This document shows positions 20,081-40,237 of a DNA stretch of 55,402 nt, piece after piece (position 1 is the first letter of the stretch; every line of letters begins with the position of its first letter). The notes beneath the pieces were generated by a model. It ran no database searches, was not told the DNA's origin, and saw only the letters and a program-made list of their open reading frames with translations. The stretch lies in IMG/VR virus record IMGVR_UViG_3300029448_000052, positions 1 through 55,402 of that record; one strand, given 5' to 3'. This DNA comes from a virus (Duplodnaviria > Caudoviricetes). The translations under genes were made by a program, and so were the position numbers.

Positions 20081-20698
20081 ATGTTCTATGCAATATGTGA
20101 AGGTTTTCCAGGAAGTTCTGGTCCAGCCTACATTGTTTATAAGTTTCCTACGCTAGAATCTATGAAGCCGTGTGAAGCTGTAAATGAATATAGTATTATT
20201 TACAATGGCGATTCGCATAGGCAGCTAATTGATTTCTGCTCTTTAGAAGAGCTAATTGAGATAGCTACCTGTTTGTGTATTGCGTTTACTGGCACGGAAG
20301 AAGTTAAATTTGTTTCTCTCCAACAAGCGGCTGACTATGTCCACTCAGTAGTGGTAAAGAAAGCTAAATTATGGAAACCCGAAAAGGAGTCTGATATGTC
20401 TACTGTTCATGTAGATCAATTTAATAATAAAGCACAGAAGCATGAAGCAGAGGTAAAAGAAACTAAAAAACCTCGCACTCGTTTTAGGAATGATGCTCGT
20501 ATCATTCTGTTAAAAGATACACCTACTGTGCGTGAAGGCACTAATCGTTTTCGTAATATGAAAGTTATTATGGAAAGTGCTACAGTTGGTGAAGCAATAG
20601 CTAAACTTCGCGCACTTACTCCTGCTCCAGGATCTGGGGTGGATATTAAGATAGCATGCGACGCAGGTGTTATAAAACTAGACTGGCAAGAGGAATAG
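20081..20698 (+). CDS. hypothetical protein, with a possible in-frame internal start at 20396
   Basis: RBS hairpin upstream; internal AAGGAG-N6-ATG at 20396. Confidence 0.6.
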   Translation: MFYAICEGFPGSSGPAYIVYKFPTLESMKPCEAVNEYSIIYNGDSHRQLIDFCSLEELIEIATCLCIAFTGTEEVKFVSLQQAADYVHSVVVKKAKLWKPEKESDMSTVHVDQFNNKAQKHEAEVKETKKPRTRFRNDARIILLKDTPTVREGTNRFRNMKVIMESATVGEAIAKLRALTPAPGSGVDIKIACDAGVIKLDWQEE

Positions 20699-20700
20699 CT

Positions 20701-21597
20701 ATGTTACCCGAAGCTGTAGAAAGTTACTTCGGCTGGATAAATGAGCGGCACTCAATATATCAACGCAGATTATTGGGTGCGCCACCACCTTGGACTAATG
20801 ATTCTATCCTGCAAGAATATAAGTTTACAAACCCTTTCCGTGAAAACGATAGGGTAACTGTATGGATGCGTGATAAATGGACAAAGCCAAATGATAACCG
20901 CCCACATGGTGAGATGATATTTAACTGTTGTATGTTTCGTATGGTTGGCACAAGTGAGTTTGCTGAAGAACATGGGTGGGTGGAAGATTTTAACCCACAA
21001 AAAACCAAACACCTTATTGAGTCAAGACTTTCTCTTGGTAAAAGAACATTTACTGGTGCATATATAATCACTAACCAAGGACTCAAAGCACCAAAATCTG
21101 AGGTAGTAGTTGACCACTTCCTTACGCCAATCTGGGAAAATAAAGAAACGCTGGCGAAGATTGCCCAAAAAACGCAGTCGCTCCAAGCGTTACATGAAGC
21201 GATGGGTGCGTATAAAGGGTGGGGAGGAGGAGGTTTTATGTCATACGAGGTGGTTACCGACCTCAACTACACACCTGTACTGGACAAGGCAAAAGACCGT
21301 TTTACTTGGGCTAACGCAGGTCCGGGAGCTATACGAGGAATTAACCGTATCCTCGGAAGAGATTTAAAAAAGGGTATGACCCAGCCTACAGCTAATGAGA
21401 ATATGGTTAGATTATTAAAACATGCACCCTATCATGTTTTAGGACATATCCCACTTAAACAAATAGATATGCGTACTATTGAGCATAGCTTATGTGAGTG
21501 GGATAAATATGAGCGTGTAAGGTTAGGGCAAGGTAGACCAAGAAGTGTTTATCGCCCTACTTTATTAACAGATACACCAAAAGGAGCTGTAGAATGA
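20701..21597 (+). CDS. aGPT-Pplase1 family (amino-acid:DNA transferase-like) thymidine hypermodification enzyme
   Basis: WINERHSIY...PPPWTNDSILQEYKFTNPFRENDRVT, FMSYEVVTDL, GPGAIRG, IEHSLCEWDKY; adjacent to a TS homolog. Confidence 0.85.
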   Translation: MLPEAVESYFGWINERHSIYQRRLLGAPPPWTNDSILQEYKFTNPFRENDRVTVWMRDKWTKPNDNRPHGEMIFNCCMFRMVGTSEFAEEHGWVEDFNPQKTKHLIESRLSLGKRTFTGAYIITNQGLKAPKSEVVVDHFLTPIWENKETLAKIAQKTQSLQALHEAMGAYKGWGGGGFMSYEVVTDLNYTPVLDKAKDRFTWANAGPGAIRGINRILGRDLKKGMTQPTANENMVRLLKHAPYHVLGHIPLKQIDMRTIEHSLCEWDKYERVRLGQGRPRSVYRPTLLTDTPKGAVE

Positions 21598-22868
21598 AGT
21601 TTCTAATGACAATGTTTCAAATACAAGATTACGGTGGAATCATTAACCATGCTGAGTATCTTGCTAAAGGTTTAAAAGAGTTAGGCCATGAAGTTGATTT
21701 TACTATGCTCGTGCCTAAACATAAAGTAGCCGCTAAAAGTCCCCCACCAAAAAACTTTGACCAATATCGTAAGGTTGGCACAGGATATCTACACCATCAA
21801 GCTAGGGGGTGGGCTGGTTTACCTAAGATCCCTTATCTTTCTAAATACCAAAGGGATTTGTTTAAACAGAAGTGTAGCAAGTATGATGCTGTTTTATGGC
21901 ATATCCCTGTACCCACCATGAGTAAGGAAAATAAAGGTATTACCGATTGGTTAGATTTGTATGACCACGGTACTAAAAACATAGCTATCATACATGATGG
22001 CAATTTGCCTGAGTTATACCCACACCTAATCCATGTACGCGAGATGTTCCATTCTGCTGTATGTGTACATGAGTCAGCTATGATTTCTGGTAGTATGTTA
22101 CCCATACCCCGCAAGCTGATAGTAAATCCGTTTGATGTTGGTATGGCAGATGGTTGGACTGACTTTGAAAAACGTGATGGTTTTGCAGCGGTGCAAGTTT
22201 TTAAAGCATGGAAACGTGTAGATACTTTAGTCCGCGCGATTAGATACATGACCCACAAAGAACAAAAGCTAATCGGTGGTGAAGGTATAGAATACAGATA
22301 CATGACAAGCCGTGATAAATGTAAGCCTAAATATTTTGACGAGCTAGGCGAACGCATTTGGGATAGAGCCAAGCGTTATGGTATGGAGCATTTAGGAACT
22401 GTGCCAAATGATAAAGTGTTTGAAATACTAAAACAGGTAAAGCTACAGATTGACCCGAGCTACAGTAAAAAGTATTCTAATTTTGGCGCACATTTTAATA
22501 GGACAACAGTAGAAGCAATACTCTGTGGTGCTGTGCCTGTGGCTACTGATTGGGGTATGCGGGATAGTGAAATATTTAAAGCAGGACAAAACTATATACA
22601 AATCCCAGCAGAGTGTGAACCGTTTAAGTTTGCTGACATTATAGATAATGCCATACATGATAAAGATCAATGGCTTCGTATAAAAGAAAACAATCTAAAA
22701 TTACTAGAGTTGTTTGATATGCGTAATGTAGCTCAAAGCTATGTTGATCTGGTAAACAATACACAAGAACTACTTATCGGCACTCCAGATGCTAAAGCCA
22801 TGCAAAAATGCCATAAAAACCTAGAGTTCTTCGGTATTAGCTCTTCAGACACTGCTCGAGTGGTTTAG
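21594..22868 (+). CDS. GT-B fold glycosyltransferase, putative DNA-modifying
   Basis: GGIINH...LAKGLKELGHEVD N-terminus, KAWKRVD, EAILCGAVPV; coupled to the aGPT-Pplase gene. Confidence 0.8.
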   Translation: MKFLMTMFQIQDYGGIINHAEYLAKGLKELGHEVDFTMLVPKHKVAAKSPPPKNFDQYRKVGTGYLHHQARGWAGLPKIPYLSKYQRDLFKQKCSKYDAVLWHIPVPTMSKENKGITDWLDLYDHGTKNIAIIHDGNLPELYPHLIHVREMFHSAVCVHESAMISGSMLPIPRKLIVNPFDVGMADGWTDFEKRDGFAAVQVFKAWKRVDTLVRAIRYMTHKEQKLIGGEGIEYRYMTSRDKCKPKYFDELGERIWDRAKRYGMEHLGTVPNDKVFEILKQVKLQIDPSYSKKYSNFGAHFNRTTVEAILCGAVPVATDWGMRDSEIFKAGQNYIQIPAECEPFKFADIIDNAIHDKDQWLRIKENNLKLLELFDMRNVAQSYVDLVNNTQELLIGTPDAKAMQKCHKNLEFFGISSSDTARVV

Positions 22869-22927
22869 TATTGTTTAGGCCACACACCTACTACCCCTAA
22901 CCTTTAACCACGTCGAGGAGGCGTTGT

Positions 22928-23905
22928 ATGCAGTCAATTTATGCAAGAGGAGTAAGCGAAGCTCTGTTTTTAGGTCAACAAGCCTTATTTTCGTCAGGTA
23001 AGGAAGTAAACACCCGAAATGGTTTAGCACTTGAGTTTCCTACCCCTGTTATGACAACTTATACCCATAGCAGGGAACGAGTTTTGTTTTACCCAGAACG
23101 TGATGCTAACCCTTATTTCCATTTAATGGAAAGTTTATGGATGTTAGCAGGACGAAATGATGTGCCTTGGATTTTAGGTTTTAACGGTCGCATGAATACA
23201 TATAGTGATGATGGTAAAACTTTCCACGGTGCTTATGGTTACAGATGGAGGGAATGGTTTGGTAAAGATCAGTTAAAGATTATTCTGTTTAGATTAGGCA
23301 CTTACCATAACGACCGTAGAGCTGTTTTAGGAATATGGGATCCTCACCAAGATTTAGTTGAAACTAATGATGGGAAAGATTACCCCTGTAATACCCAGAT
23401 ATATTTTTGGGAGCGTAAGGGTGAACTAAATATGACTGTAACTAACCGCAGTAATGATATGATCTGGGGTGCGTATGGTGCTAATGCTGTTCACATGTCT
23501 GTGCTGTTAGAGTATATGGCTGGGATGCTTGGATATGTTGTAGGCACATATTATCAATTTAGTAATAATCTTCATGCATATACAGATGTCTTAGAAAAGT
23601 TAGAAGGTATGCAAGCAGATTATGAACCTTACCTTACATTAGGTGATGATGGGTTGAGTTATAACCCACCAGCTTTAATTGATGATCCTGATACATTTGA
23701 CCAAGAGCTACAAAAATGGTTTTTAGATGAAGCAAGAGTGACTTACAATAATAGTTATTTAGGATCTACTTGTGGAAATATGCGTAAGTCATGGAGATTC
23801 TGGAAAAATAAAAGTTACGATAATGCTTTTCATTGTGCCAATGCAATAGAAGATCGTGCATGGCGTAGAGCCTGTGTGGATTGGTTGCAAAGGAGAATTA
23901 AGTGA
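22928..23905 (+). CDS. thymidylate synthase homolog, probably dUMP hydroxymethylase
   Basis: GAYGYRWR, catalytic YPCN, RSNDMIWGAYGAN (Asn indicates dUMP-type specificity), NLHAY. Confidence 0.85.
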   Translation: MQSIYARGVSEALFLGQQALFSSGKEVNTRNGLALEFPTPVMTTYTHSRERVLFYPERDANPYFHLMESLWMLAGRNDVPWILGFNGRMNTYSDDGKTFHGAYGYRWREWFGKDQLKIILFRLGTYHNDRRAVLGIWDPHQDLVETNDGKDYPCNTQIYFWERKGELNMTVTNRSNDMIWGAYGANAVHMSVLLEYMAGMLGYVVGTYYQFSNNLHAYTDVLEKLEGMQADYEPYLTLGDDGLSYNPPALIDDPDTFDQELQKWFLDEARVTYNNSYLGSTCGNMRKSWRFWKNKSYDNAFHCANAIEDRAWRRACVDWLQRRIK

Positions 23906-24418: not shown

Positions 24419-26315
24419 GTGGGTTATGCCTGATGGCTACCCCGATATTTCTAGTGCTAAAGAAGTTGCTATTGATTTAGAAACACGCGATCCTAACCTT
24501 ACGACGATGGGAAGTGGCTGGCCTAGAAAAGATGGTCACATTATTGGGATAGCTGTGGCAACAGAAGGTGACCAATGGTACTTCCCCATCAGGCACGAGA
24601 TTGGTCCTAACTTTGATGTAAAAAGAACTTTAGGATGGTTAGCAGATGTTTGTAAAATTGATAGGACTTACGTTTTTCATAATGCTCCTTACGATGTCGG
24701 CTGGATGCTCGCAGAAGGTGTGCGTGTACAAGGAAAAATCATTGACACAATGGTCGTTGCGCCACTGTTAGATGAAAACAGATTCAGTTATGCTTTAAAT
24801 GCTATTGGTAGAGATTACCTGCAAGAGCGTAAAAGTGAAGTTGAGTTAAGGGAAGCAGCCGAGGCTTTTGGCGTAAATGCTAAAAGTGAGATGTATAAAC
24901 TTCCTGCTCATCATGTGGGAAAATATGCTGAACAAGATGCTGCGTTAACATTGAAACTCTGGCAGCATTTTAAAACACTAATAATAAAAGAAGATATTAA
25001 AGATATCTTTGAACTTGAAATCAATGTTCTTAAAACAATTATACCAATGCGCGAGCGTGGTGTCAGGGTTGATTTAGATAAATGTGAGCGTATAAAGAAA
25101 GAGTTGCTACAAAAAGAACAACAACTGTTAGGGTTGATAAAAAGACAAACAGGGGTAGAAGTAGAGATATGGGCGGCTGAAAGTGTATCTAAGGCTTTTG
25201 ATGCGTTAGACCTACCTTACAGTAAAACAGAAAAGACTGGTGCTCCTAGTTTTACTAAAGGGTTCTTAAGTAATCACCCTCACGAAGTCCCACAAATGAT
25301 TGTACAAGCTAGAGAATATCAAAAAGCACGTAGCACATTTGTAGATACTATACTTAAACACCAAATAAACGGACGTATACATGCTGAGCTGCACCCTTTA
25401 CGTAATGATGGGGGAGGCACGGTTACTGGTAGATTTAGCTATAGCAACCCTAATCTTCAACAAATACCAGCAAGGCATGGCGAAATAGGTCCAATGATAC
25501 GCAGTTTGTTTATACCAGAACAAGACTGTTTATGGGGCGCATTCGATTACTCCAGCCAAGAACCACGTATTGTTGTGCATTATGCTAAACTCATGGGCTT
25601 CAGAGGGGCTTCTGACTTTGCTGAACAATACAATGCTGACCCACGTACAGATTTCCACCAAATGGCGGCTGATATTGTGGGTGTCCCGCGTAAACAGGCA
25701 AAAGATATCAACCTTGGTTTATTCTATGGGATGGGTAGTAAAAAGTTAGCAGCGAGCCTTGGTTTAGAGTTTGAAGATGCTCAAGAACTGTTCGCCACAT
25801 ACCATGATAAAGTACCCTTTGTGCGTGAGCTTAGTGATTATAGCACTAATCGAGCTAACTCTCGTGGTGTTATCCGCACATTATTAGGGCGTAGGTGTAG
25901 ATTCGATAAATGGGAGCCTAATAAGTATGGGACTTGGAAGCCTATGACTTACCAAGAAGCCTACGCAGAACATGGTCCTGGAATCAAAAGAGCGTTTACA
26001 TACAAAGCTCTTAATAAACTCATACAAGGCAGCGCGGCAGATCAAACAAAAGCAGCGATGGTTGCTCTAGCTGATGAAGGCATACTACCCATGATTCAAG
26101 TACATGATGAGCTGGATGTATCTGTTGAGTCAGAAGAACAAGCAAAAAAGATAACTGAAATAATGCAAGATTGTGTTAAATTAGAAGTCCCTTCTATAGT
26201 GGATGCTGAGTTTGGTCCAAACTGGGGGGAAGCAAAACAAACTTTCACGGAAAAACCGTGGGTAAGAGGATTAAAAGATGGCAGCACAGAAATGCAGCAT
26301 AACATCACAAATTAA
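24387..26315 (+). CDS. polA: DNA polymerase family A with 3'-5' exonuclease domain
   Basis: IDLET (Exo I), TVTGRFS..NPNLQQIP, DYSSQEPR (motif A), KDINLGLFYGMG (motif B, Leu762), QVHDEL (motif C). Confidence 0.95.
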   Translation: MQYPLFQPPTEWVMPDGYPDISSAKEVAIDLETRDPNLTTMGSGWPRKDGHIIGIAVATEGDQWYFPIRHEIGPNFDVKRTLGWLADVCKIDRTYVFHNAPYDVGWMLAEGVRVQGKIIDTMVVAPLLDENRFSYALNAIGRDYLQERKSEVELREAAEAFGVNAKSEMYKLPAHHVGKYAEQDAALTLKLWQHFKTLIIKEDIKDIFELEINVLKTIIPMRERGVRVDLDKCERIKKELLQKEQQLLGLIKRQTGVEVEIWAAESVSKAFDALDLPYSKTEKTGAPSFTKGFLSNHPHEVPQMIVQAREYQKARSTFVDTILKHQINGRIHAELHPLRNDGGGTVTGRFSYSNPNLQQIPARHGEIGPMIRSLFIPEQDCLWGAFDYSSQEPRIVVHYAKLMGFRGASDFAEQYNADPRTDFHQMAADIVGVPRKQAKDINLGLFYGMGSKKLAASLGLEFEDAQELFATYHDKVPFVRELSDYSTNRANSRGVIRTLLGRRCRFDKWEPNKYGTWKPMTYQEAYAEHGPGIKRAFTYKALNKLIQGSAADQTKAAMVALADEGILPMIQVHDELDVSVESEEQAKKITEIMQDCVKLEVPSIVDAEFGPNWGEAKQTFTEKPWVRGLKDGSTEMQHNITN

Positions 26316-26811
26316 AACACTCACAACGGTCTGGGATGCCCAGTTTTTACTGAGGTACCACACTGTTGCGAATCAATCAGAAAGGCAAACCGTGGGAGCA
26401 CATTCATATGCAGTAAGTGTTTTGATAGATCAATTATGGCCTGATAGCACTAAACAACTGATAATGGCGGCACTATACCATGATGTGCCAGAAATAATTT
26501 TAGGTGATATTCCAGCTACAGCTAAATGGGCTTATCCAGAAATACAACAAGCCTTTGAAAAAGCTGAGAAAAAAGTATTTGATGACCTTGGTTTAATATT
26601 TGTACTTACCCCAGAAGAAAAATCACGACTCAAAATGGCAGATATGCTTGAGTTAGTTTTATATACTCATCGTCACTCACAGGGCAGTGATCAAATGAAA
26701 ATGATCATGCACTCAGGTATAAATTATTTATATGAAAAGTTTTCTTCACAAAAAGATTTTCAACCAATAAAAAAGGTTTTAGCTCACTACAATCTAGGAG
26801 GTGTACCGTGA
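26278..26811 (+). CDS. HD-domain 5'-deoxynucleotidase (YfbR-like)
   Basis: RYH...QTVGAHS...ALYHDVPE...GDIP...KMADMLE. Confidence 0.85.
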   Translation: MAAQKCSITSQIKTLTTVWDAQFLLRYHTVANQSERQTVGAHSYAVSVLIDQLWPDSTKQLIMAALYHDVPEIILGDIPATAKWAYPEIQQAFEKAEKKVFDDLGLIFVLTPEEKSRLKMADMLELVLYTHRHSQGSDQMKMIMHSGINYLYEKFSSQKDFQPIKKVLAHYNLGGVP

Positions 26812-31372: not shown

Positions 31373-31740
31373 ACCTATAAATATGGTTTATGACCCAAAA
31401 AAGAGGCCGCTCAGACGCCGCTCGACTGTCTCTAATGTAGTGGGTAGTAGGGTAGGTACCCCTAAAATAATGACTAATTACCAAGGTTTCTGATTAGTTT
31501 GCTATATAGGAGGTAAATGCGGATAGGAGTAAATTTGTTTTTTATGATTTGATAATATACAATATCTCACTATACACATATATTCAATGAGTTAGCATAT
31601 GAATTACGAAGATTGATCCAATATCTCAGTAAAGTATTTCCGTCCGCGCGATCTCATTTGTGATAAATTTGAATTTAACATAATTCGTTTTTAGACCTAT
31701 TATGCAAAGTACCCCATCAGGTACGAGAGAGAGGAATCAA

Positions 31741-32277
31741 ATGGCTTTAGCAAAAGCAACTCATAAGCCCACGCTTGATGTCGTCGCAAATCCACGCAAA
31801 GAAAAATCCATCACCCCTAAACAAGAAGAATTTGCACGACTTTATGTTTGTGAGGATATTTCACAAACGGAGGCGGCTGTCCGTGCTGGATATTCTGTGA
31901 AATCAGCCCATGCTATTGCCTCCCAATTATTAAATGGACAAAGGTATCCCCATGTAGTAGAGAGGATCCGTGAGTTAAAGCAAGAGTTAGCTCGTAAGTA
32001 TGAGGTCAGTTTTGAGGGTCATGTCAAAAAACTTGCTGAGATCCGTGATGCTGCGATGACAGGAGGAAATTTTGCTGCTGCCGTTGCCGCTGAAAAATCA
32101 CGAGGCCAAGCCGCAGGGATCTATATTGATCGTAAAGAAATCTTGCATGGTAAAATTGATCAGATGAGTCGTGATGAAGTTATGCGAGAAATAAAAAGGA
32201 TACAAGAGGAGTTCCCCGCATTAGCAGTTGTTACTGAGGGTAATATAATGATTGATCATGATGAGGGTGACAATTAA
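31741..32277 (+). CDS. terS: terminase small subunit
   Basis: ITPKQEEFARLYV...QTEAAVRAGYS..SAH.IASQLL. Confidence 0.85.
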   Translation: MALAKATHKPTLDVVANPRKEKSITPKQEEFARLYVCEDISQTEAAVRAGYSVKSAHAIASQLLNGQRYPHVVERIRELKQELARKYEVSFEGHVKKLAEIRDAAMTGGNFAAAVAAEKSRGQAAGIYIDRKEILHGKIDQMSRDEVMREIKRIQEEFPALAVVTEGNIMIDHDEGDN

Positions 32278-33784: not shown

Positions 33785-34090
33785 ATGATACAGTATGTAG
33801 ATATGAATGATGATGGTAATATGGTGGTTACTAATGAAGACCCCAGTCGCCTCATGTTGTTAACGACTTTGTGGTATACGGAGACCACTATGGTTGATGG
33901 CACTCCGTTTACACCTAACCCTGATGTATACATGGTATCCTGGACAGATGAGTTAAGGCAACGTGCCGAGTTAGCAGGTCGTATCAATGCTCATAATGAG
34001 TGGGCAAGGGAGCAGGAGGGTAGACCAGTTGTCAAGTTTGCCAAGCAACAAGTCGTGCTTATCACGCCTACCACAACGGAGCTGGTGTGA
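33785..34090 (+). CDS. hypothetical protein
   Basis: TAGAAAGGAG RBS. Confidence 0.55.
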   Translation: MIQYVDMNDDGNMVVTNEDPSRLMLLTTLWYTETTMVDGTPFTPNPDVYMVSWTDELRQRAELAGRINAHNEWAREQEGRPVVKFAKQQVVLITPTTTELV

Positions 34091-34171: not shown

Positions 34172-34612
34172 GTGAGTAAACCAGAGTCCACGTTGTGGAA
34201 AAATCTGCGTGAGGGAACCAAAGATCTAGGCGTGTTTTGGACACGTCTAGAGTCTTGGTCTAGTCCTGGAGTACCTGACCTGCATGGCATCTTAGATGGT
34301 CATGCTTTTTGGCTTGAACTTAAAGTCCATAGGTTAAACTCGTTAAATAAAATTGCGCTGCGTCCTCACCAAATTGCTTGGCAGATAAGATATAGCAGAT
34401 ATTCTGGAAACGTCTGGAACTTGGTTGGTCATCCTTCCTCCCGAACTATAAATATATTTCGTGGTGCGAGAGCCATGGAGCTGACAGAAAAGAGGACAAA
34501 AGATGATCCCTTGATACCTGACTGGAGTTCGGGGATTCCTTACGATTGGACGGGTGCCATCAATCATATTCTATCATCATCTCGTCCCATCATAAAGGAG
34601 GAAGAGCTCTAG
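34172..34612 (+). CDS. PD-(D/E)XK nuclease, Holliday-junction resolvase / VRR-NUC-like
   Basis: PESTLW...RLES...GVPDL...WLELK...LRPHQIAW. Confidence 0.8.
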   Translation: MSKPESTLWKNLREGTKDLGVFWTRLESWSSPGVPDLHGILDGHAFWLELKVHRLNSLNKIALRPHQIAWQIRYSRYSGNVWNLVGHPSSRTINIFRGARAMELTEKRTKDDPLIPDWSSGIPYDWTGAINHILSSSRPIIKEEEL

Positions 34613-34843
34613 TTTCGTCATCAATTATCCTCGGTCTAAAGTCAAATCATCAATCTTCCTCAATCATTTTCCATTGACGATTTACGAGGATTCGCGAGGT
34701 ACGATCTCTTGACGATGATTGATGATGACAATAATATTTAATGATATTTAATGATAATTAAAGACTTGTCAATAAAACTCGGCCATGCTATTCTAACATC
34801 ATAAGCAATGGTGCTTATGGAGATGTCGTAGAAAGGACATGTC

Positions 34844-35260
34844 ATGACTGTAAAAACTGCTAAAAAATCAACTGCTAAAACTGTCGTTAAATCTGCTGAG
34901 TTAGTGGTCACTGATAAAGAAATCACCTATCCAGAAATCTGGGCATTTATCCAGGAGCATGCTGGTGGCAATGAGGCTAACGTCAAAATTGTGCCTCTTG
35001 ACAATGTTGACTTGGCAAGCGCAACGCCTGTCCCGTTTGGCTATGGTGGCAAGACAGGAGGCGTTCGTCAGGTTATACAAGATTGGATGCTTAAAGGTGT
35101 TGATGGTGATTTGTCGCTAAAAGCCTCTCTTAATAAAGCGGCACCATTAGGACACTCGCGTAAAAAGCCTGTCTGCTTACATGCTTTGATGCATGGGGGA
35201 TACAGCCCGTCCAGCAAATACTGGATGACACCATTCGTCAAACTTGTAGTCCAAGGCTAA
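34844..35260 (+). CDS. hypothetical protein, paralog A
   Basis: Has its own promoter, hairpin RBS and terminator; colinear with 35666..36112. Confidence 0.8.
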   Translation: MTVKTAKKSTAKTVVKSAELVVTDKEITYPEIWAFIQEHAGGNEANVKIVPLDNVDLASATPVPFGYGGKTGGVRQVIQDWMLKGVDGDLSLKASLNKAAPLGHSRKKPVCLHALMHGGYSPSSKYWMTPFVKLVVQG

Positions 35261-35293: not shown

Positions 35294-35554
35294 ACCGAGG
35301 AACCATGCTTGAGGAAGAGGGATGATGATTCCCTTTGCCCGAGGAAGACTTCCTATATAGGCATTAGTCTATATATATCATGTCATCATCAATCTTTCTC
35401 TAATAAGTTTTGATGAGTTTTGAGGATTTAACATTTTAAAATGAGCATGGTCACGAAAACTCAACTGCTACACTTTGTAAAAAACAAATAGCAAAGGGTT
35501 AAAAATGTGGTTGTTAATTTTTGCACTAATAGTGCTGGGTTTTTATGGCCTACT

Positions 35555-35611
35555 AAAAAAGTAAAAATAAATAAAAATAAGTATTGTGCGCGACGCTAAA
35601 GTGTGCATAAT
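35555..35611 (+). promoter_or_regulatory. sigma70-like promoter with A-tract UP element
   Basis: A-tracts at 35555-35580, TTGTGC, extended -10 TGTG-CATAAT. Confidence 0.5.
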
Positions 35612-35665
35612 AAAAATTGTAGCCGCTACTGGCTACCGCATTTAACCGTAGAAAGGGTTTATAAA

Positions 35666-36112
35666 ATGCAAAACACTACTAAAGGCAAGGCAGCCAAAAA
35701 TGCCACTACTACTACAGCCGTTGTACCTGTAGCCCCTACATTGCAGCATACTGGCAATGAGCTAACCTATGCTTGCCTATGGGCGTTTATTAACGGCCAA
35801 GCTGGCGGCAATTTGCACAATGTGCAGGTAGTGCCACTTAGCAATGTTAAGTTAAACGACGCACAGCCAGTACCCTTTGGTTTTAATGGTAAAGCTGGCG
35901 GTGTGCGGCACCAAATACAAACTTGGTTGTTAAACGGTGTTAAAGGTAATAACAGCCTAGCCGCAATACTGGCGGCAGCTAAACCGCTAGGCCATAGCAG
36001 CAAAAAGCCTATTTGTTTACTTGCCATGTTAAATGGCGGCTACAGCCCTAGCAGTGCAGTATGGGGTACTGGCTACGTTAAACTGGTAGTGCAGCCCCAG
36101 CCTACCAAATAA
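35666..36112 (+). CDS. hypothetical protein, paralog B (nearly TC/GA-free, Asp/Glu-depleted)
   Basis: ATG at 35666 after AACC-GTAGAAAG-GGTT; shares WAFI..AGGN, PVPFG, GGVR, PLGHS.KKP.CL.A..GGYSPSS and VKLVVQ with paralog A. Confidence 0.8.
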   Translation: MQNTTKGKAAKNATTTTAVVPVAPTLQHTGNELTYACLWAFINGQAGGNLHNVQVVPLSNVKLNDAQPVPFGFNGKAGGVRHQIQTWLLNGVKGNNSLAAILAAAKPLGHSSKKPICLLAMLNGGYSPSSAVWGTGYVKLVVQPQPTK

Positions 36113-36148
36113 CCCAGCGTTGGGGGTACTAGGGTACCCCCAGCCACT

Positions 36149-36178
36149 AACACCGCCCAGCTTGGGCGGTGTTTTTTT
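36149..36178 (+). terminator. rho-independent terminator
   Basis: AACACCGCCCA-GCT-TGGGCGGTGTT followed by a T run; a second hairpin lies at 36121-36142. Confidence 0.8.
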
Positions 36179-36395
36179 GTACCCCCGCGAGACCGTCCCC
36201 TTGGCTATAGCTCGGTCTGTAGCCATGTTTTGGACAAATCGTGTGGTCATAAAAAAGTTTTTGGATATTGACTTTTACTCGATCAAAAGCCGAGACCGCT
36301 ACCCCCCTTTACTGTAGAATCGTCATAGGTTCATTGCCCTAGAAAAATTTTCGATATATTTATAATATATTCGCATTATTGAGGAACCATGGATA

Positions 36396-37859
36396 ATGGA
36401 CATTCAGTTTGTACCAGAAGAGCAATTAAAGAAGTACGCCCATTTATTAGACCGCGCTAAAGAGATTACCCAAGCAGAGGCCAGCCAGCAGGATTTTATG
36501 GAGTATACGCAAACTGTTTGGCCTGAATTTATAAATGGACGCCACCATAAAATAATGGCAGAGAAGTTTAACCGTATAGCTAATGGAGATTTAAAGCGGT
36601 TAATTGTAAATATGCCACCGCGTCATACTAAAAGTGAGTTTGGCAGTTATTTATTACCTAGTTGGTTGATGGGTAAAAACCCCCGATTAAAGATAATGCA
36701 GACAACGCATACGGCAGAGTTAGCATTTAGATTTGGCCGAAAGGTGCGTAATTTAATGAACTCTACAGAGTATACTAGGGTTTTTCCTGGAGTAGAGTTA
36801 CGTGCGGATAGCCAAGCGGCAGGGCGTTGGGAGACAAGTAAGGGTGGAGAATATTTTGCGGCGGGAGTTGGTGGTGCGGTTACAGGGCGTGGTGCTGATT
36901 TATTGATTATTGATGACCCACATAGTGAGCAAGATGCTTTAAGCCCTACAGCATTAGAGCATGCTTATGAGTGGTATACATCTGGTCCGCGCCAGCGTTT
37001 ACAACCAGGAGGTGCGATTGTCATTATTATGACGCGTTGGGCAGATAATGATTTAACAGGCAAATTGATAAAGCAACAGGGTAGAGATATACTGGCAGAT
37101 AAATGGGAAGTGGTTGAGTTCCCAGCGTTAATGCCAGATAGTGAAGAACCCCTTTGGCCTGAGTTTTGGAAAAAGGAAGATTTGTTAAGTGTTAAGGGTA
37201 GTTTGTCAGTTGGTAAGTGGGAGGCGCAATGGCAGCAAAACCCTACTGGCGATATGGCAGCTATACTTAAACGTGAGTGGTGGAATGTGTGGAAAAAAGA
37301 TGATATACCACCATTAGAGTATGTAATGCAGAGTTATGATACAGCATACAGTAAAAAAGAGAGTGCGGATTTTAGTGCTATAACAACGTGGGGTGTTTTT
37401 TATCCAGAGGATGGAGGACCAGCAAACATTATTCTGTGTGATGCAAAACGTGGTAGGTGGGACTTTCCTGATTTAAGGAGGCGAGCACTTGAGGAGTATA
37501 AATACTGGGAGCCAGAATGTGTACTAATTGAGGCAAAAGCCAGTGGTATGCCGCTTACTCAGGAGTTACGCAATATGGGTATACCTGTGATGAATTATAC
37601 ACCTAGCAGGGGTAATGATAAATTTACAAGAGTAAACTCTATTGCGCCATTGTTTGAAAGTGGTTTAGTATGGTCGCCAGATACTCGTTGGGCAGAAGAA
37701 GTTGTAGAAGAGTGTGCAGCGTTTCCCGCAGGGGAGCATGATGATTATGTTGATACAGTTACCCAAGCTCTACGTAGATTTAGAGAAGGCGGTTTTATTC
37801 AGCACCCCGAAGATTATGAGGATGATGAAGCTGTCCCTGTACAAAGGATATATTACTAA
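36396..37859 (+). CDS. terL: terminase large subunit
   Basis: NMPPRHTKS, TGRGADLLIIDDP, SYDTA, IEAKASG, HDDYVD. Confidence 0.95.
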   Translation: MDIQFVPEEQLKKYAHLLDRAKEITQAEASQQDFMEYTQTVWPEFINGRHHKIMAEKFNRIANGDLKRLIVNMPPRHTKSEFGSYLLPSWLMGKNPRLKIMQTTHTAELAFRFGRKVRNLMNSTEYTRVFPGVELRADSQAAGRWETSKGGEYFAAGVGGAVTGRGADLLIIDDPHSEQDALSPTALEHAYEWYTSGPRQRLQPGGAIVIIMTRWADNDLTGKLIKQQGRDILADKWEVVEFPALMPDSEEPLWPEFWKKEDLLSVKGSLSVGKWEAQWQQNPTGDMAAILKREWWNVWKKDDIPPLEYVMQSYDTAYSKKESADFSAITTWGVFYPEDGGPANIILCDAKRGRWDFPDLRRRALEEYKYWEPECVLIEAKASGMPLTQELRNMGIPVMNYTPSRGNDKFTRVNSIAPLFESGLVWSPDTRWAEEVVEECAAFPAGEHDDYVDTVTQALRRFREGGFIQHPEDYEDDEAVPVQRIYY

Positions 37860-40237
37860 TGGCAATTAACCCACGTCCCAGCAATATTGACCGCAGTTTA
37901 TTACAAGCCCCTAATGATACATTTAGTGCATTAGAAGATAATTTGCTTGACCAAGAGTTAGAAGTTTTAACAGAAGAGGCCAGTGAAGATGGTGGGGCAG
38001 AAGTTATTTTTGGTGAGGATGACCAGCCATTAGGTGAAGAGCCAGCTAACTTTTACGATAATATAGCAGAATTTTTAAGTGAAGATACACTTGGTAAAGT
38101 ATCTAGCTATGTTATGGAGAGTGTTGATGATGATAAAACCAGCCGTGATGAGTGGGTAGAAACATATACAAAAGGTTTAGAATTATTGGGATTAAAGTAT
38201 GAATCCCGCACAGAACCTTTTGATGGTGCTACAGGTGTAATCCACCCGATATTAAATGAAGCTGTAACACAGTTTCAGGCTGGTGCTTATAAAGAGATGT
38301 TACCTAGCACTGGTCCAGTAAAGGGTAATATTATTGGTGAGCCTACCCCAGAAATAGAAGCACAGGCTAAACGTGTACAAGATTACATGAATTATCAGAT
38401 TATGTATGAAATGGAAGAGTATGAGCCTGAATATGATCAGATGCTCTATTACCTTGGACTCTCTGGTAGTGCGTTTAAAAAAGTTTACCGTGATGATGTG
38501 CTTGGTAGACCAGTAAGTAAGTTTGTACCAGCCGAAGATGTAGTTGCACCGTATACGGCAACTGATCTAGCTTCAGCAGAACGTATTACACATATCTTAA
38601 AAATGTCTAAAAATGAGTTACGTAAGCTACAAGTAACTGGTTTTTACCGTGATATGGATATACCCAAGGGTGAAAACACTCAATCAGATGATGTAAAAGA
38701 GGCTTATAACGAAATTGAAGGCAGAGAACCTGCTGGAGATAGTGAAGAAGTTATTTTATATGAGTGCCATTGTTATTTAGACCTTGAAGAATATCCAGAT
38801 ATGGGTCAAGATGGTGAAGAAACAGGTATAAAACTACCTTATATAGCTACAATTAGTTCAGATAATGAAGAAGTATTATCTATACGGCGAAATTATCTGC
38901 AAGATGACCCTATGAAGAAGAAAATTGGTCATTTTGTGCAATATAAATTTACTCCTGGACTTGGTTTTTATGGTTTTGGCCTGATTCATTTACTTGGTAA
39001 TTTATCTCGCACAGCTACAGCTAATTTACGGCAGTTAATTGACTCTGGGACATTGAGTAATATGCCAGCAGGGTTTAAAGCTCGTGGTTTACGTATAGCA
39101 GATGAGCAAACACCACTACATCCAGGAGAATTTAGGGATATTGATATTCCTGGAGGTGATATACGCACCAGTTTGATGTCTTTACCGTATAAAGAGCCCT
39201 CTGCTACGTTATTTCAGTTAATGGGTTTTGTAATTGAATCAGCACAACGGTTTATTGGTACTACAGATATTGGTGTAGGTGATGGCAGACAAGAAATGCC
39301 AGTGGGTACAACTATTGCTTTACTTGAGCGTGGTGCAAAAATTATTAGTGCAGTCCATAAAAGGATGCATGCGAGTTTAAAACAAGAATTAAAAATGTTG
39401 GGGCGGTTATTTGCAGAAGACCCAACCCCTTATCCTTATAATGTAAAAGCTGATGCACAAATAAAAGCTACAGATTTTGATGCAAGGGTAGATATAATCC
39501 CAGTAAGTGACCCAAATATATTTAGTATGTCACAAAGGGTGGTTTTAGCTCAAGAACAATTAAAATTAGCTACTGCTGCCCCTGAGATGCATAATTTAAG
39601 AGAAGCATACCGCAGAGTTTATGAAGCATTAGGTGTAAATAATGTTGAGCAAATTTTAAAACCAGAGCCGCAACCCCAACAAATGGATCCAGCGGCAGAA
39701 AACCAGTTTGCTAGTCAAGCGGCTGGTGGTCAGGGTAAAATGCAAGCCTTCCCAGACCAAGACCATGATGCTCATATTTCTGTGCATTTAGCTTACATGC
39801 AAAGTAGAGTAGCACAAATGCAGCCCCCTATATTGCTCACATTAGAAAAACATATTTATGAGCATATTGGTATGAAGGCGATGGTGCAGTTCCAGCAACA
39901 AATGCAGCAAGATCCTAATATGCAGCAAATGCCCCCTGAGGCTCAAGCTGCTCAGATTGCTAAAGTACAAGCACAATTGATGGCTGAGTATCAACAGCAA
40001 CAACCGCCAGCACCACCTAGTGATCCGTTAGTTGATATAAAGAAACAAGAACTTGCATTACGTGAGCAAGAAATGAAAATGGATCAACAATTAGACCAAC
40101 AAAAGTTACAAGTTGATACACAGAGTAAACAAGAAAATGCTGATATCGCCCGTGAGCGTATAGCTTCTACTGAAGATATAGCTAATATGCGAGCACAAAT
40201 TGCTTTACAAAGACAACAGCAAAATAGGGGTGGGTAA
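37859..40237 (+). CDS. portal protein
   Basis: Follows terL; GSAFKKVY, FYGFGLIH, EMPVGTTIALLE; Gln-rich C-terminal tail. Confidence 0.85.
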   Translation: MAINPRPSNIDRSLLQAPNDTFSALEDNLLDQELEVLTEEASEDGGAEVIFGEDDQPLGEEPANFYDNIAEFLSEDTLGKVSSYVMESVDDDKTSRDEWVETYTKGLELLGLKYESRTEPFDGATGVIHPILNEAVTQFQAGAYKEMLPSTGPVKGNIIGEPTPEIEAQAKRVQDYMNYQIMYEMEEYEPEYDQMLYYLGLSGSAFKKVYRDDVLGRPVSKFVPAEDVVAPYTATDLASAERITHILKMSKNELRKLQVTGFYRDMDIPKGENTQSDDVKEAYNEIEGREPAGDSEEVILYECHCYLDLEEYPDMGQDGEETGIKLPYIATISSDNEEVLSIRRNYLQDDPMKKKIGHFVQYKFTPGLGFYGFGLIHLLGNLSRTATANLRQLIDSGTLSNMPAGFKARGLRIADEQTPLHPGEFRDIDIPGGDIRTSLMSLPYKEPSATLFQLMGFVIESAQRFIGTTDIGVGDGRQEMPVGTTIALLERGAKIISAVHKRMHASLKQELKMLGRLFAEDPTPYPYNVKADAQIKATDFDARVDIIPVSDPNIFSMSQRVVLAQEQLKLATAAPEMHNLREAYRRVYEALGVNNVEQILKPEPQPQQMDPAAENQFASQAAGGQGKMQAFPDQDHDAHISVHLAYMQSRVAQMQPPILLTLEKHIYEHIGMKAMVQFQQQMQQDPNMQQMPPEAQAAQIAKVQAQLMAEYQQQQPPAPPSDPLVDIKKQELALREQEMKMDQQLDQQKLQVDTQSKQENADIARERIASTEDIANMRAQIALQRQQQNRGG

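Follow-up and report, generated by a model that had tools for sequence, protein, structure and literature searches.

We describe an island at positions 35463-36188 of a 55,402-nucleotide (nt) phage sequence (IMG/VR record IMGVR_UViG_3300029448_000052, Caudoviricetes; analysed at full length and called the window below) that is almost free of the dinucleotide TC and of its reverse complement GA. The island is 726 nt long, is depleted on both strands and lies upstream of the TerL gene. It is a self-contained expression cassette for a 148-amino-acid protein, copy B (35666-36112, + strand), whose open reading frame (ORF) contains no TC and two GA. Judged by its sequence, copy B is a recoded paralog of the adjacent gene, copy A (34844-35260, + strand; 138 amino acids, 57% identity to copy B), which has a normal composition with 22 TC and 20 GA and serves as an internal control. 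It is highly probable that selection maintains the cassette in a target-free state and that it escapes a process acting at TpC dinucleotides, whichever agent is responsible.

From the base composition of the island (A219, T180, G165, C162), 40.2 TC and 49.8 GA would be expected, compared with the zero TC and four GA (at 35592, 35651, 35759, and 35858) that were counted. Our recount returned exactly the numbers and positions given in the original prediction, which had been made from the letters alone, and it also agreed that TT (54), CT (43), and CC (46) are still frequent in the same 726 nt. We then counted TC+GA in every 726-nt window of the 55,402-nt sequence, the sliding-window check that had been proposed. 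The mean was 73.2 (standard deviation, 12.0), which places the island with its count of 4 at z=-5.75, and no other part of the genome approached it, the runner-up among non-overlapping windows holding 47. The Poisson tail for four or fewer at a mean of 73.2 is 2e-26. The longest TC-free run in the sequence was 735 nt (35463-36196), and the second longest, at 226 nt, was more than 3-fold shorter. For the other nine dinucleotide pairs, the lowest window z was between -2.1 and -2.95. The original prediction had drawn sharp edges around exactly one transcription unit; the main unit was recovered as described, but the depleted zone begins about 120 nt upstream of the promoter noted there. Since this additional 5′ stretch holds a mini-ORF and a small hairpin, the island is made up of a leader segment followed by a single main transcription unit.

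The relatives consisted of 80 IMG/VR loci anchored on TerL, of which 60 were in-clade (TerL identity of at least 74%) and 20 were outgroup (64 to 69%). With an island defined as at least 450 bp holding no more than 4 TC/GA, one was found upstream of TerL in 37 of the 60 in-clade loci and in none of the 20 outgroup loci. The longest strict zero runs reached 1086 bp (L057), 906 bp (L041), and 854 bp (L023), and the distance from island to TerL was approximately 100 to 540 bp in most loci, 2.6 kb in L051, and 4.4 kb in L055. An island was missing from 23 in-clade loci; the upstream sequence was too short to judge in 9 of them, and the remaining 14 were unpurged (L002/5, L008, L015, L026, L027, and L068) or intermediate (L003/4, L009/11, L012, L013, and L050). 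Eleven genomes were near-complete, eight with one strongly depleted island each and three without. In one of the eight (G006), positions 1-627 at the start of the record form a second, milder low of 11 TC/GA per 600 nt, approximately 1.5 kb past the main island if the genome is circular. When 29 non-redundant islands were pooled (22.8 kb), the observed/expected ratio (o/e) was 0.04 for TC and 0.05 for GA, and no other di- or trinucleotide was avoided in this pool, the lowest trinucleotide lacking TC and GA standing at 0.76 of its Markov expectation. The stretch was present in contigs of marine metagenome runs from 9 studies, and GC content within the clade ranges from 36 to 48%.

The purge was also seen outside the coding sequence. 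Among 25 loci, made up of the window and 24 of the 29 non-redundant islands, promoter segments held 22 TC/GA compared to 76 expected, and leaders held 10 compared to 178, figures that are to be read in aggregate only, as the promoters are predicted and the calls noisy. In most loci, the purged zone starts tens of nt upstream of the predicted -35 box. That the purge reaches promoter DNA argues for a DNA-level component.

Using a hidden Markov model of the family, we found the tandem A/B pair in almost all in-clade loci. The counts for copy A in these loci were 13 to 35 TC and 9 to 34 GA throughout, while the copy B next to TerL was mostly purged. In a phylogenetic tree, the copy A sequences grouped in a single well-supported, short-branched clade; copy B alleles were far more divergent and sat on long branches, with unpurged or partly purged alleles beside purged sisters (L026/27 beside L025, L012 beside L017, L009 beside L010, and L002 beside the window's group). 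L009 and L010 are 99 to 100% identical over more than 1 kb of flanking sequence on each side and 90 to 92% identical in the island, where the differences are mostly synonymous, and the difference between them (11 TC in one and none in the other) looks like the result of a cassette swap by recombination. The two dinucleotides can be lost separately: L009/L011 carry 11 TC and 1 GA, L001 carries 0 and 6, and L012 carries 4 and 10.

Comparison of the two copies showed how the missing dinucleotides are replaced. Conserved Ser residues, encoded by TCG/TCC in copy A, are encoded by AGC in copy B, GGA has become GGC, GTC has become GTG, GTA, or GTT, and the Asp/Glu positions of copy A are taken by S, K, T, N, G, C, or L. 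A purely mutational footprint, i.e., saturating TC to TT and GA to AA deamination or other context-specific mutation without any selection, would fit the somewhat raised AA (o/e 1.41) and TT (o/e 1.21) in the window's island and the richness of the copy B protein in Asn/Lys at the expense of Asp/Glu, but we regard it as very improbable. In the pooled islands (22.8 kb), the proportion of C has not changed (0.220 compared to 0.221 in copy A), T is not raised (0.253 compared to 0.257), and the lost pairs are replaced mainly by GC (1.82), GG (1.45), TT (1.37), and TA (1.28), with AA not above copy A (1.33 compared to 1.30). Furthermore, going from Ser TCN to AGC needs several changes via non-Ser intermediates, Asp/Glu were replaced by more than N and K, and the edges of the island match the ends of the functional cassette. 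A simple footprint of a TC-preferring deaminase, a type of enzyme whose evasion the original prediction had offered as an alternative, was not borne out by the unchanged C, the T that is not raised, and the Ser TCN to AGC shift. Three independent pairs of purged alleles differ by 53, 31, and 19 synonymous single-base changes, approximately 11.3, 7.7, and 3.8 of which (about 23 in total) would be expected to create TC or GA, and each allele holds 0 to 3. Synonymous divergence without new TC/GA means that the ban is actively enforced, and we conclude that the purge reflects ongoing selection, not deamination. Chance, an error of assembly, or the recent uptake of a foreign gene with an odd composition has nothing to recommend it beyond the slightly higher GC content of the island (45%, compared to 40.6% for the genome) and carries virtually no probability, given the z value and the gap to the next window reported above, the recurrence in 37 independent contigs with runs from the 9 studies, and an ORF that is intact, conserved, and adjacent to its paralog.

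The dinucleotide ban has stripped acidic residues from copy B. Its isoelectric point (pI) is 10.0 with only 2 acidic residues (pI 9.5 for copy A), and the mean number of Asp plus Glu is 1.1 in 31 purged proteins compared to 11.7 in 36 normal ones. The family has at least 162 homologs, with 31 invariant columns in an alignment of 44 sequences. Copy B had no match in Pfam, PHROG, or NCBIfam; its AlphaFold2 (AF2) model was confident (pLDDT 84), with no fold match in PDB or BFVD at E<=0.001, and a search of the ESM Atlas returned only the family's own viral hypothetical clusters. A profile search over 1.84 billion proteins gave 96 clusters, nearly all of them a stand-alone domain. A single protein, P0191 (420 amino acids), joins the family domain (residues 62-194, hhalign probability 98%) to a C-terminal HNH_2 domain (PF13391, E=9e-11). 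This protein is a singleton from one JGI contig of 9.7 kb, i.e., 1 of the 96 representative clusters is fused, and when longer forms of the family were sought, one other protein turned up, which is probably a chimeric gene call. P0191 weakly resembles phosphorothioate-dependent restriction enzymes, its match to a type IV-like family scoring 22 bits against a cut-off of 180. Because the fusion is a singleton, we took it only as a hint of DNA binding by the family. Copy B is small and basic and is probably a nucleic acid-binding protein. Two other assignments were rejected. Copy B does not match any terminase family or fold, and a separate ORF (31702-32277) matches the small terminase family Terminase_2 (E=4.3e-14); a link by fusion between the family and the phage's own HNH-like neighbor was likewise dropped, as the HNH domain of P0191 is unrelated to that gene.

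The original prediction held that the phage encodes thymidine-hypermodification enzymes, and homology supports such a set. It includes a homolog of the 5-hydroxymethyldeoxyuridine (5-hmdU) DNA kinase (20656-21597, + strand; PF18723 HMUDK_hel, E=1.7e-50), which is a candidate determinant of the modification context, a thymidylate synthase (TS)-like gene (22928-23905; PF00303, E=1.7e-18; phrog_5131, E=2.3e-102), which is a hydroxymethylase candidate by homology that does not separate hydroxymethylase from methylase, and an HD hydrolase (26278-26811). A GT1-family glycosyltransferase (21594-22868; PF00534, E=4.8e-8) lies beside the kinase, and no match to the aGPT-Pplase family was found among the ORFs scanned. 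All 11 clade genomes carry the kinase, and the complete genome of the outgroup phage HTVC027P lacks it; no kinase was found in four outgroup fragments, although fragments prove little. The GT1-family gene was found in 7 of the 11 clade genomes, including all three island-less ones and four of the eight with an island. The final modification made by the cluster (20081-23905) may therefore differ between relatives and may be an undescribed chemistry.

A weaker avoidance of TC, restricted to the coding strand, was found in the genes downstream of the island, TerL (36396-37859, + strand) and portal (37859-40237, + strand), with TC o/e of 0.33 and 0.51, respectively, and GA o/e of 0.92 in both. In the window's TerL, TCN accounts for 5 of 23 Ser codons (57% elsewhere), NTC for 3 of 49 NTY codons (24% elsewhere), and 12 T/C codon junctions were counted compared to 32 expected. 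Avoidable GA was normal in this gene (GGA 8 of 33, NGA 8 of 31, and 21 G/A junctions compared to 33.6 expected). Elsewhere in the genome, TC o/e was 0.57 to 0.73 in replication genes and 1.34 in the HNH-like gene. The latter gene and its surroundings (34172-34750) are TC-rich (37 to 39 TC per 400 nt), in contrast to the nearby island and TerL. Mean TC o/e in TerL was 0.53 for loci with an island (n=34) and 0.50 for in-clade loci whose island is absent or partial (n=13), compared to a mean of 0.92 for the outgroup (n=20) and 0.95 for HTVC027P. The lowest values, 0.18 to 0.19, were those of L053/L054, and GA was not depleted in TerL in any group. Coding-strand-only TC avoidance is thus a mark of the whole kinase-bearing clade and not of the outgroup.

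What does the cassette escape? We tentatively favor the explanation that it is kept TpC-free to avoid the clade's own TpC-directed thymidine hypermodification; this unmodified-gene idea is unproven, but it is the single most likely reading of the data. According to this scheme, the 5-hmdU DNA kinase would act post-replicatively on 5-hydroxymethyluracil (5-hmU) standing before C. By arithmetic from the dinucleotide counts, TpC-directed modification would cover approximately 17% of thymidines, and the cassette would be the sole stretch left as plain 5-hmdU DNA. It could then be read or bound when hypermodified DNA is not, for example immediately upon entry or at a late stage of infection, and production of copy B would be bootstrapped from the unmodified cassette. 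The purge of both strands and of promoter and UP-element DNA speaks for this explanation, as does a TC-directed pressure that is present in the kinase clade and absent from the kinase-less outgroup; moreover, since the clade spans 36 to 48% GC, a cause travelling with the phage fits better than the enzyme of one host. There is also precedent for such sequence contexts: a TG/TC preference of hypermodification has been inferred for phages M6, ViI, and phiW-14, as given in the accessible part of PMC6449724, and a strict GA dinucleotide motif is described for DNA modification by DpdA of phage iggy in the available portion of PMC10484667.

Several observations weigh against this explanation. Relatives that keep the modification cluster had been expected to carry the island, and all three island-less near-complete relatives retain the kinase, TS-like, and HD genes, their kinases (72%, 74%, and 61% identity) being among the closest to that of the window. 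The cultured kinase phages M6, Sonora, and RHph_I72 were all three without an island of any dinucleotide, and no ortholog cluster was present in at least six of the eight island genomes and absent from all three island-less ones. TG, which shares the published preference with TC, shows no depletion (o/e 1.15). Unpurged alleles scattered among purged sisters look like a pressure switching on and off, and TC and GA are lost independently in L009/L011, L001, and L012. In addition, the depletion in TerL affects the coding strand only, which a symmetric modification of double-stranded DNA does not predict on its own; if hypermodified T blocked RNA polymerase, avoidance would be expected at template-strand sites, which read as GA in the coding strand, and it is not seen there. 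Finally, the highly expressed head genes of the window are not TC-depleted, with per-gene o/e values of 0.9 to 1.2. The suggestion of the original prediction that T would be modified in a TC context and the gene left naked is partly supported, by a pressure that marks the kinase clade and by the purge of both strands, while the island-less kinase-bearing relatives, the undepleted TG, and the one-stranded signal in TerL did not agree with it. A more far-reaching version strikes us as rather doubtful. It would make TpC the address code of a new hypermodification in a widespread clade of marine phages, with a density tuned gene by gene and strand by strand and with the zero cassette encoding a modification reader. 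The A/B family, a domain of which is also joined to an HNH nuclease in P0191, would then read the modification, be made first or last, and bootstrap the handling of the modified genome, and the cassette would be the only unmodified DNA in the virion.

The explanation ranked second, possible although we would not bet on it, is proofing against a dinucleotide-specific host defense or toxin that acts on single-stranded nucleic acid. Candidate effectors are a CmdT-type mRNA ADP-ribosyltransferase (GA), a UC/TC-specific RNase or HEPN nuclease, a deaminase of TC in single-stranded DNA (ssDNA), or a DarT-like enzyme, and copy B would then be a product needed even as other genes come under attack, e.g., a counter-defense protein. 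Two Cas13b enzymes prefer UC and GA, and endonuclease IV of phage T4 cuts T^C in ssDNA, background to which we gave no weight in the verdict. A host effector would account for the strand-specific signals, i.e., the coding-strand-only TC avoidance in TerL/portal and the independent loss of TC or GA, for a purge state that flips repeatedly among close relatives, for the island being a hot spot of divergence (as in L009/L010, and in the long branches of copy B next to the short ones of copy A), and for the loss of GA from the Shine-Dalgarno core itself. Agents with such small targets are known: CmdT acts on GA in single-stranded RNA (ssRNA) and APOBEC3 leaves TC/GA footprints, according to the accessible parts of PMC11618068 and PMC7449416, and Cas13 orthologs differ in dinucleotide preference, as stated in the available portion of PMC11417378. 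On the other hand, an agent acting only on mRNA leaves the purge of untranscribed promoter and UP-element DNA unexplained, there is no C-to-T signature, and the rescue of a phage by protecting one gene depends on the assumption that the gene encodes an antidote. TerL avoidance is equal with and without an island (0.53 and 0.50) and runs across genomes of 36 to 48% GC, which probably have different hosts. As the phage uses Shine-Dalgarno sites, a Bacteroidetes host with a type VI-B CRISPR system is unlikely. Evasion of DarT at TNTC, raised in the original prediction, found no support, for the depletion is independent of the base at -2: in 11 genomes, TNTC stands at 0.90 to 1.00 of its expectation given TC, not below ANTC, CNTC, or GNTC, and inside the island every TC is absent in any context. 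This lack of a TNTC effect speaks against a canonical DarT2.

Two further explanations were weighed. It is unlikely that the cassette merely overlaps a replication origin or a packaging/entry end where DNA is single-stranded or unmodified, with the gene happening to lie inside the zone. Iteron-like repeats just 5′ of the island in several relatives, the AT-rich tract within it, its place directly upstream of a conserved element and TerL, and a detrended GC-skew extreme that lies in the island or next to it in 4 of the 8 island genomes would suit an origin or end, and local APOBEC3 footprints at origins are known from the accessible part of PMC7449416. However, the skew extreme falls where the strongly skewed TerL/portal genes begin and is missing from the other 4 of 8 genomes, the island sequences are highly divergent, unlike a protein recognition site, and the candidate site that is conserved has TC and GA of its own and is located outside the island. 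Neither do contig ends coincide with the island; those nearby are spread over 0 to 1.5 kb and were not taken as physical ends. Packaging motors that track the 5′-3′ strand, the regulation of P1 pac by GATC methylation, and the way in which the genome ends of lambda and HK97 are arranged are related background that likewise had no weight in the verdict. Slightly less likely again is self-avoidance, in which the A and B proteins would bind TpC-containing or TpC-modified sites and coat the genome, the copy B gene being site-free and hence not self-silenced. This would account for a normal and a purged copy side by side, both copies are basic, and the HNH_2 fusion of P0191 gives the domain the position that the DNA sensor occupies in modification-dependent restriction enzymes. 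Nevertheless, that fusion is known from one protein on one contig, its type IV-like match is far below the cut-off, no fold match to any DNA-binding protein was obtained, and the coding-strand TC avoidance in TerL is left without an explanation.

Within the cassette, all features described here are on the + strand. Near its 5′ end lies a 19-codon hydrophobic mini-ORF (35505-35564; MWLLIFALIVLGFYGLLKK), read from the sequence, which is preceded by an AAAGGG box as is copy B and contains a small hairpin with a T-run (35523-35535); by eye, comparable small hydrophobic ORFs are seen upstream of copy B in L025 and L057. An AT-rich tract (35555-35581) resembles an UP element, its function being suggested by sequence, and AT-rich tracts occur at the same position in most relatives. 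It precedes a putative, tentatively assigned sigma-70-type promoter (35584-35611) with TTGTGC (35584-35589), a 16-nt spacer, and CATAAT (35606-35611). A strict consensus promoter scan did not call this promoter; the boxes are clearer in relatives, e.g., TTTACA-17-TATATT. The leader folds into a hairpin with a 6-bp stem, GUAGCC/GGCUAC (35619-35636; -12.5 kcal/mol for 35613-35665), that recurs at the same position in approximately 10 relative loci by eye. The Shine-Dalgarno sequence of copy B, GAAAGGG (35651-35657), is a variant of the phage's usual TAGAAAGGAG/C box in which the GGA core has become GGG (gtagaaaggac in copy A and gtagaaagggt in copy B), and fully purged relatives use AAAGGGG or AAGGGG; GGAG, GAGG, or AGGA is present for 38 of 60 phage genes. 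Downstream of the ORF, where the original prediction had correctly placed a terminator (36149-36173 plus a T-run), we found two tandem intrinsic-terminator hairpins (36120-36143 and 36151-36171) with a T-run to 36178 (-39.9 kcal/mol for 36105-36185). A search of Rfam gave only sub-threshold chance matches over the terminators. The cassette is probably strongly expressed. Metatranscriptome contigs of X20 cover copy A, copy B (35588-36053), and the neighboring genes, although these are contigs only, which neither rank expression nor mark starts and ends, and DNA carry-over is possible.

A conserved non-coding element (36179-36339, + strand) between the island and TerL makes up the 3′ edge of the island. 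It consists of a C-run with GAGA (36179-36194), a hairpin with a 9-bp stem (36202-36225), GTTTTGGACAAATC (36227-36240), and GGTTCATTGCCC (36328-36339), and also has TCGAG and two C-runs approximately 120 nt apart. Because it is kept in island-less relatives as well, it is a separate feature and not part of the island; a packaging site (pac/cos) or a late promoter would be guesses at its role. Directly outside the 5′ edge of the island, iteron-like repeats were observed, with three copies of GATC at 10-bp periodicity in L034, L044, L045, and L058, GTCAA four times in L018, TCA repeats in L014, and AGTTTTGAKG twice in the window (35405-35425).

The record is 94% complete, with nearly all genes on the + strand. 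Besides the genes described above, it encodes an archaeo-eukaryotic primase (AEP), a UvrD-type helicase, a DUF932 protein, and a family-A DNA polymerase, and the small terminase (31702-32277) and the HNH-like gene (34172-34612) precede the A/B pair. The nearest cultured relatives by TerL are the pelagiphages HTVC027P and HTVC023P, whose 57 to 62% identity is at the outgroup level, and searching the 6-kb region and the ORF against cultured phages by DNA and protein similarity gave no match. In contigs from one RNA run and from one DNA run, 33242 is followed directly by 34177 and the 934 nt between them are missing, which suggests a natural variant without that segment and its ORF (33785-34090).

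The consequences depend on which agent is responsible. If the purge marks the phage's own chemistry, the context of hypermodification could be read from sequence alone, a context that was described in 2018 as "not yet known" (PMC5889632) and for which 2019 brought no more than an indirect inference (PMC6449724), and the cassette would be a built-in negative control for mapping by nanopore or single-molecule real-time (SMRT) sequencing. Should TpC indeed be an address code, this would be the first virus to write a modification-free gene into a hypermodified genome, and a protein family would have been forced to function nearly without acidic residues. If a host effector is the cause, abundant marine phages would be under a dinucleotide-specific pressure, with copy B as a candidate counter-defense gene. 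Two adjacent paralogs subject to opposite nucleotide constraints make an unusually clean natural experiment, in which a ban at the DNA level excludes TCN, GAN, NTC, and NGA codons and leaves approximately one acidic residue in place of about 12. Screening viral genomes for short words purged from single cassettes might reveal other targets of modification or defense.

Avoidance of motifs is a known kind of adaptation; a near-absolute, two-stranded purge of a dinucleotide from one cassette, accompanied by an unpurged paralog next door and by a protein left with hardly any acidic residues, was not found in the literature in a search of limited reach. Restriction-site avoidance concerns specific 4- to 8-bp, mostly palindromic words and is statistical. 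The island resembles it in that short words are shunned to escape an enzyme targeting nucleic acid, but bare TC/GA are lost here in any context, with no tri- or tetranucleotide dependence. With the phages of the 5-hmdU kinase pathway (PMC5889632, PMC8989533), the window shares a kinase and a TS-like hydroxymethylase candidate, whereas no aGPT-Pplase was detected in it and M6, Sonora, and RHph_I72 are without an island. Within the same limited search, no report of a modification-site-free or dinucleotide-free gene was found for hypermodified phages. CmdT of the CmdTAC system ADP-ribosylates the adenine of GA in ssRNA, and its authors point to the GA in Shine-Dalgarno sequences, as given in the accessible part of PMC11618068. 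The specificity for GA on mRNA and the Shine-Dalgarno sequence of copy B without a GA core are alike, and GA is scarce in the transcript including that site (4 in the window, 0 in many relatives), but the depletion is not confined to the transcript, and the purge of UC/TC and of promoter DNA is left unexplained. The APOBEC3 footprint in human DNA viruses, as described in the available portion of PMC7449416, involves the same TC/GA pair, is strand-specific or regional, and is read as escape from a TpC enzyme on ssDNA; it is, however, graded and carries a C-to-T signature (NTC down, NTT up), whereas the island is near-absolute over 0.6 to 1.1 kb without C loss, and comprises a whole cassette with sharp edges in a bacteriophage. 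An APOBEC-type enzyme should leave both strand-specific TC depletion, which is present (TerL TC 0.33, GA 0.92), and a C-to-T signature, which is absent. We know of no TC-directed enzyme for this bacteriophage. ACA-less mRNAs under MazF follow the same logic, in that the target motif is removed so that one message survives a sequence-specific toxin. Those messages are mainly engineered and lack a 3-nt RNA motif on one strand, whereas the island is natural, has lost a motif of 2 nt from both strands and from the promoter, and has had its protein reshaped along with it.

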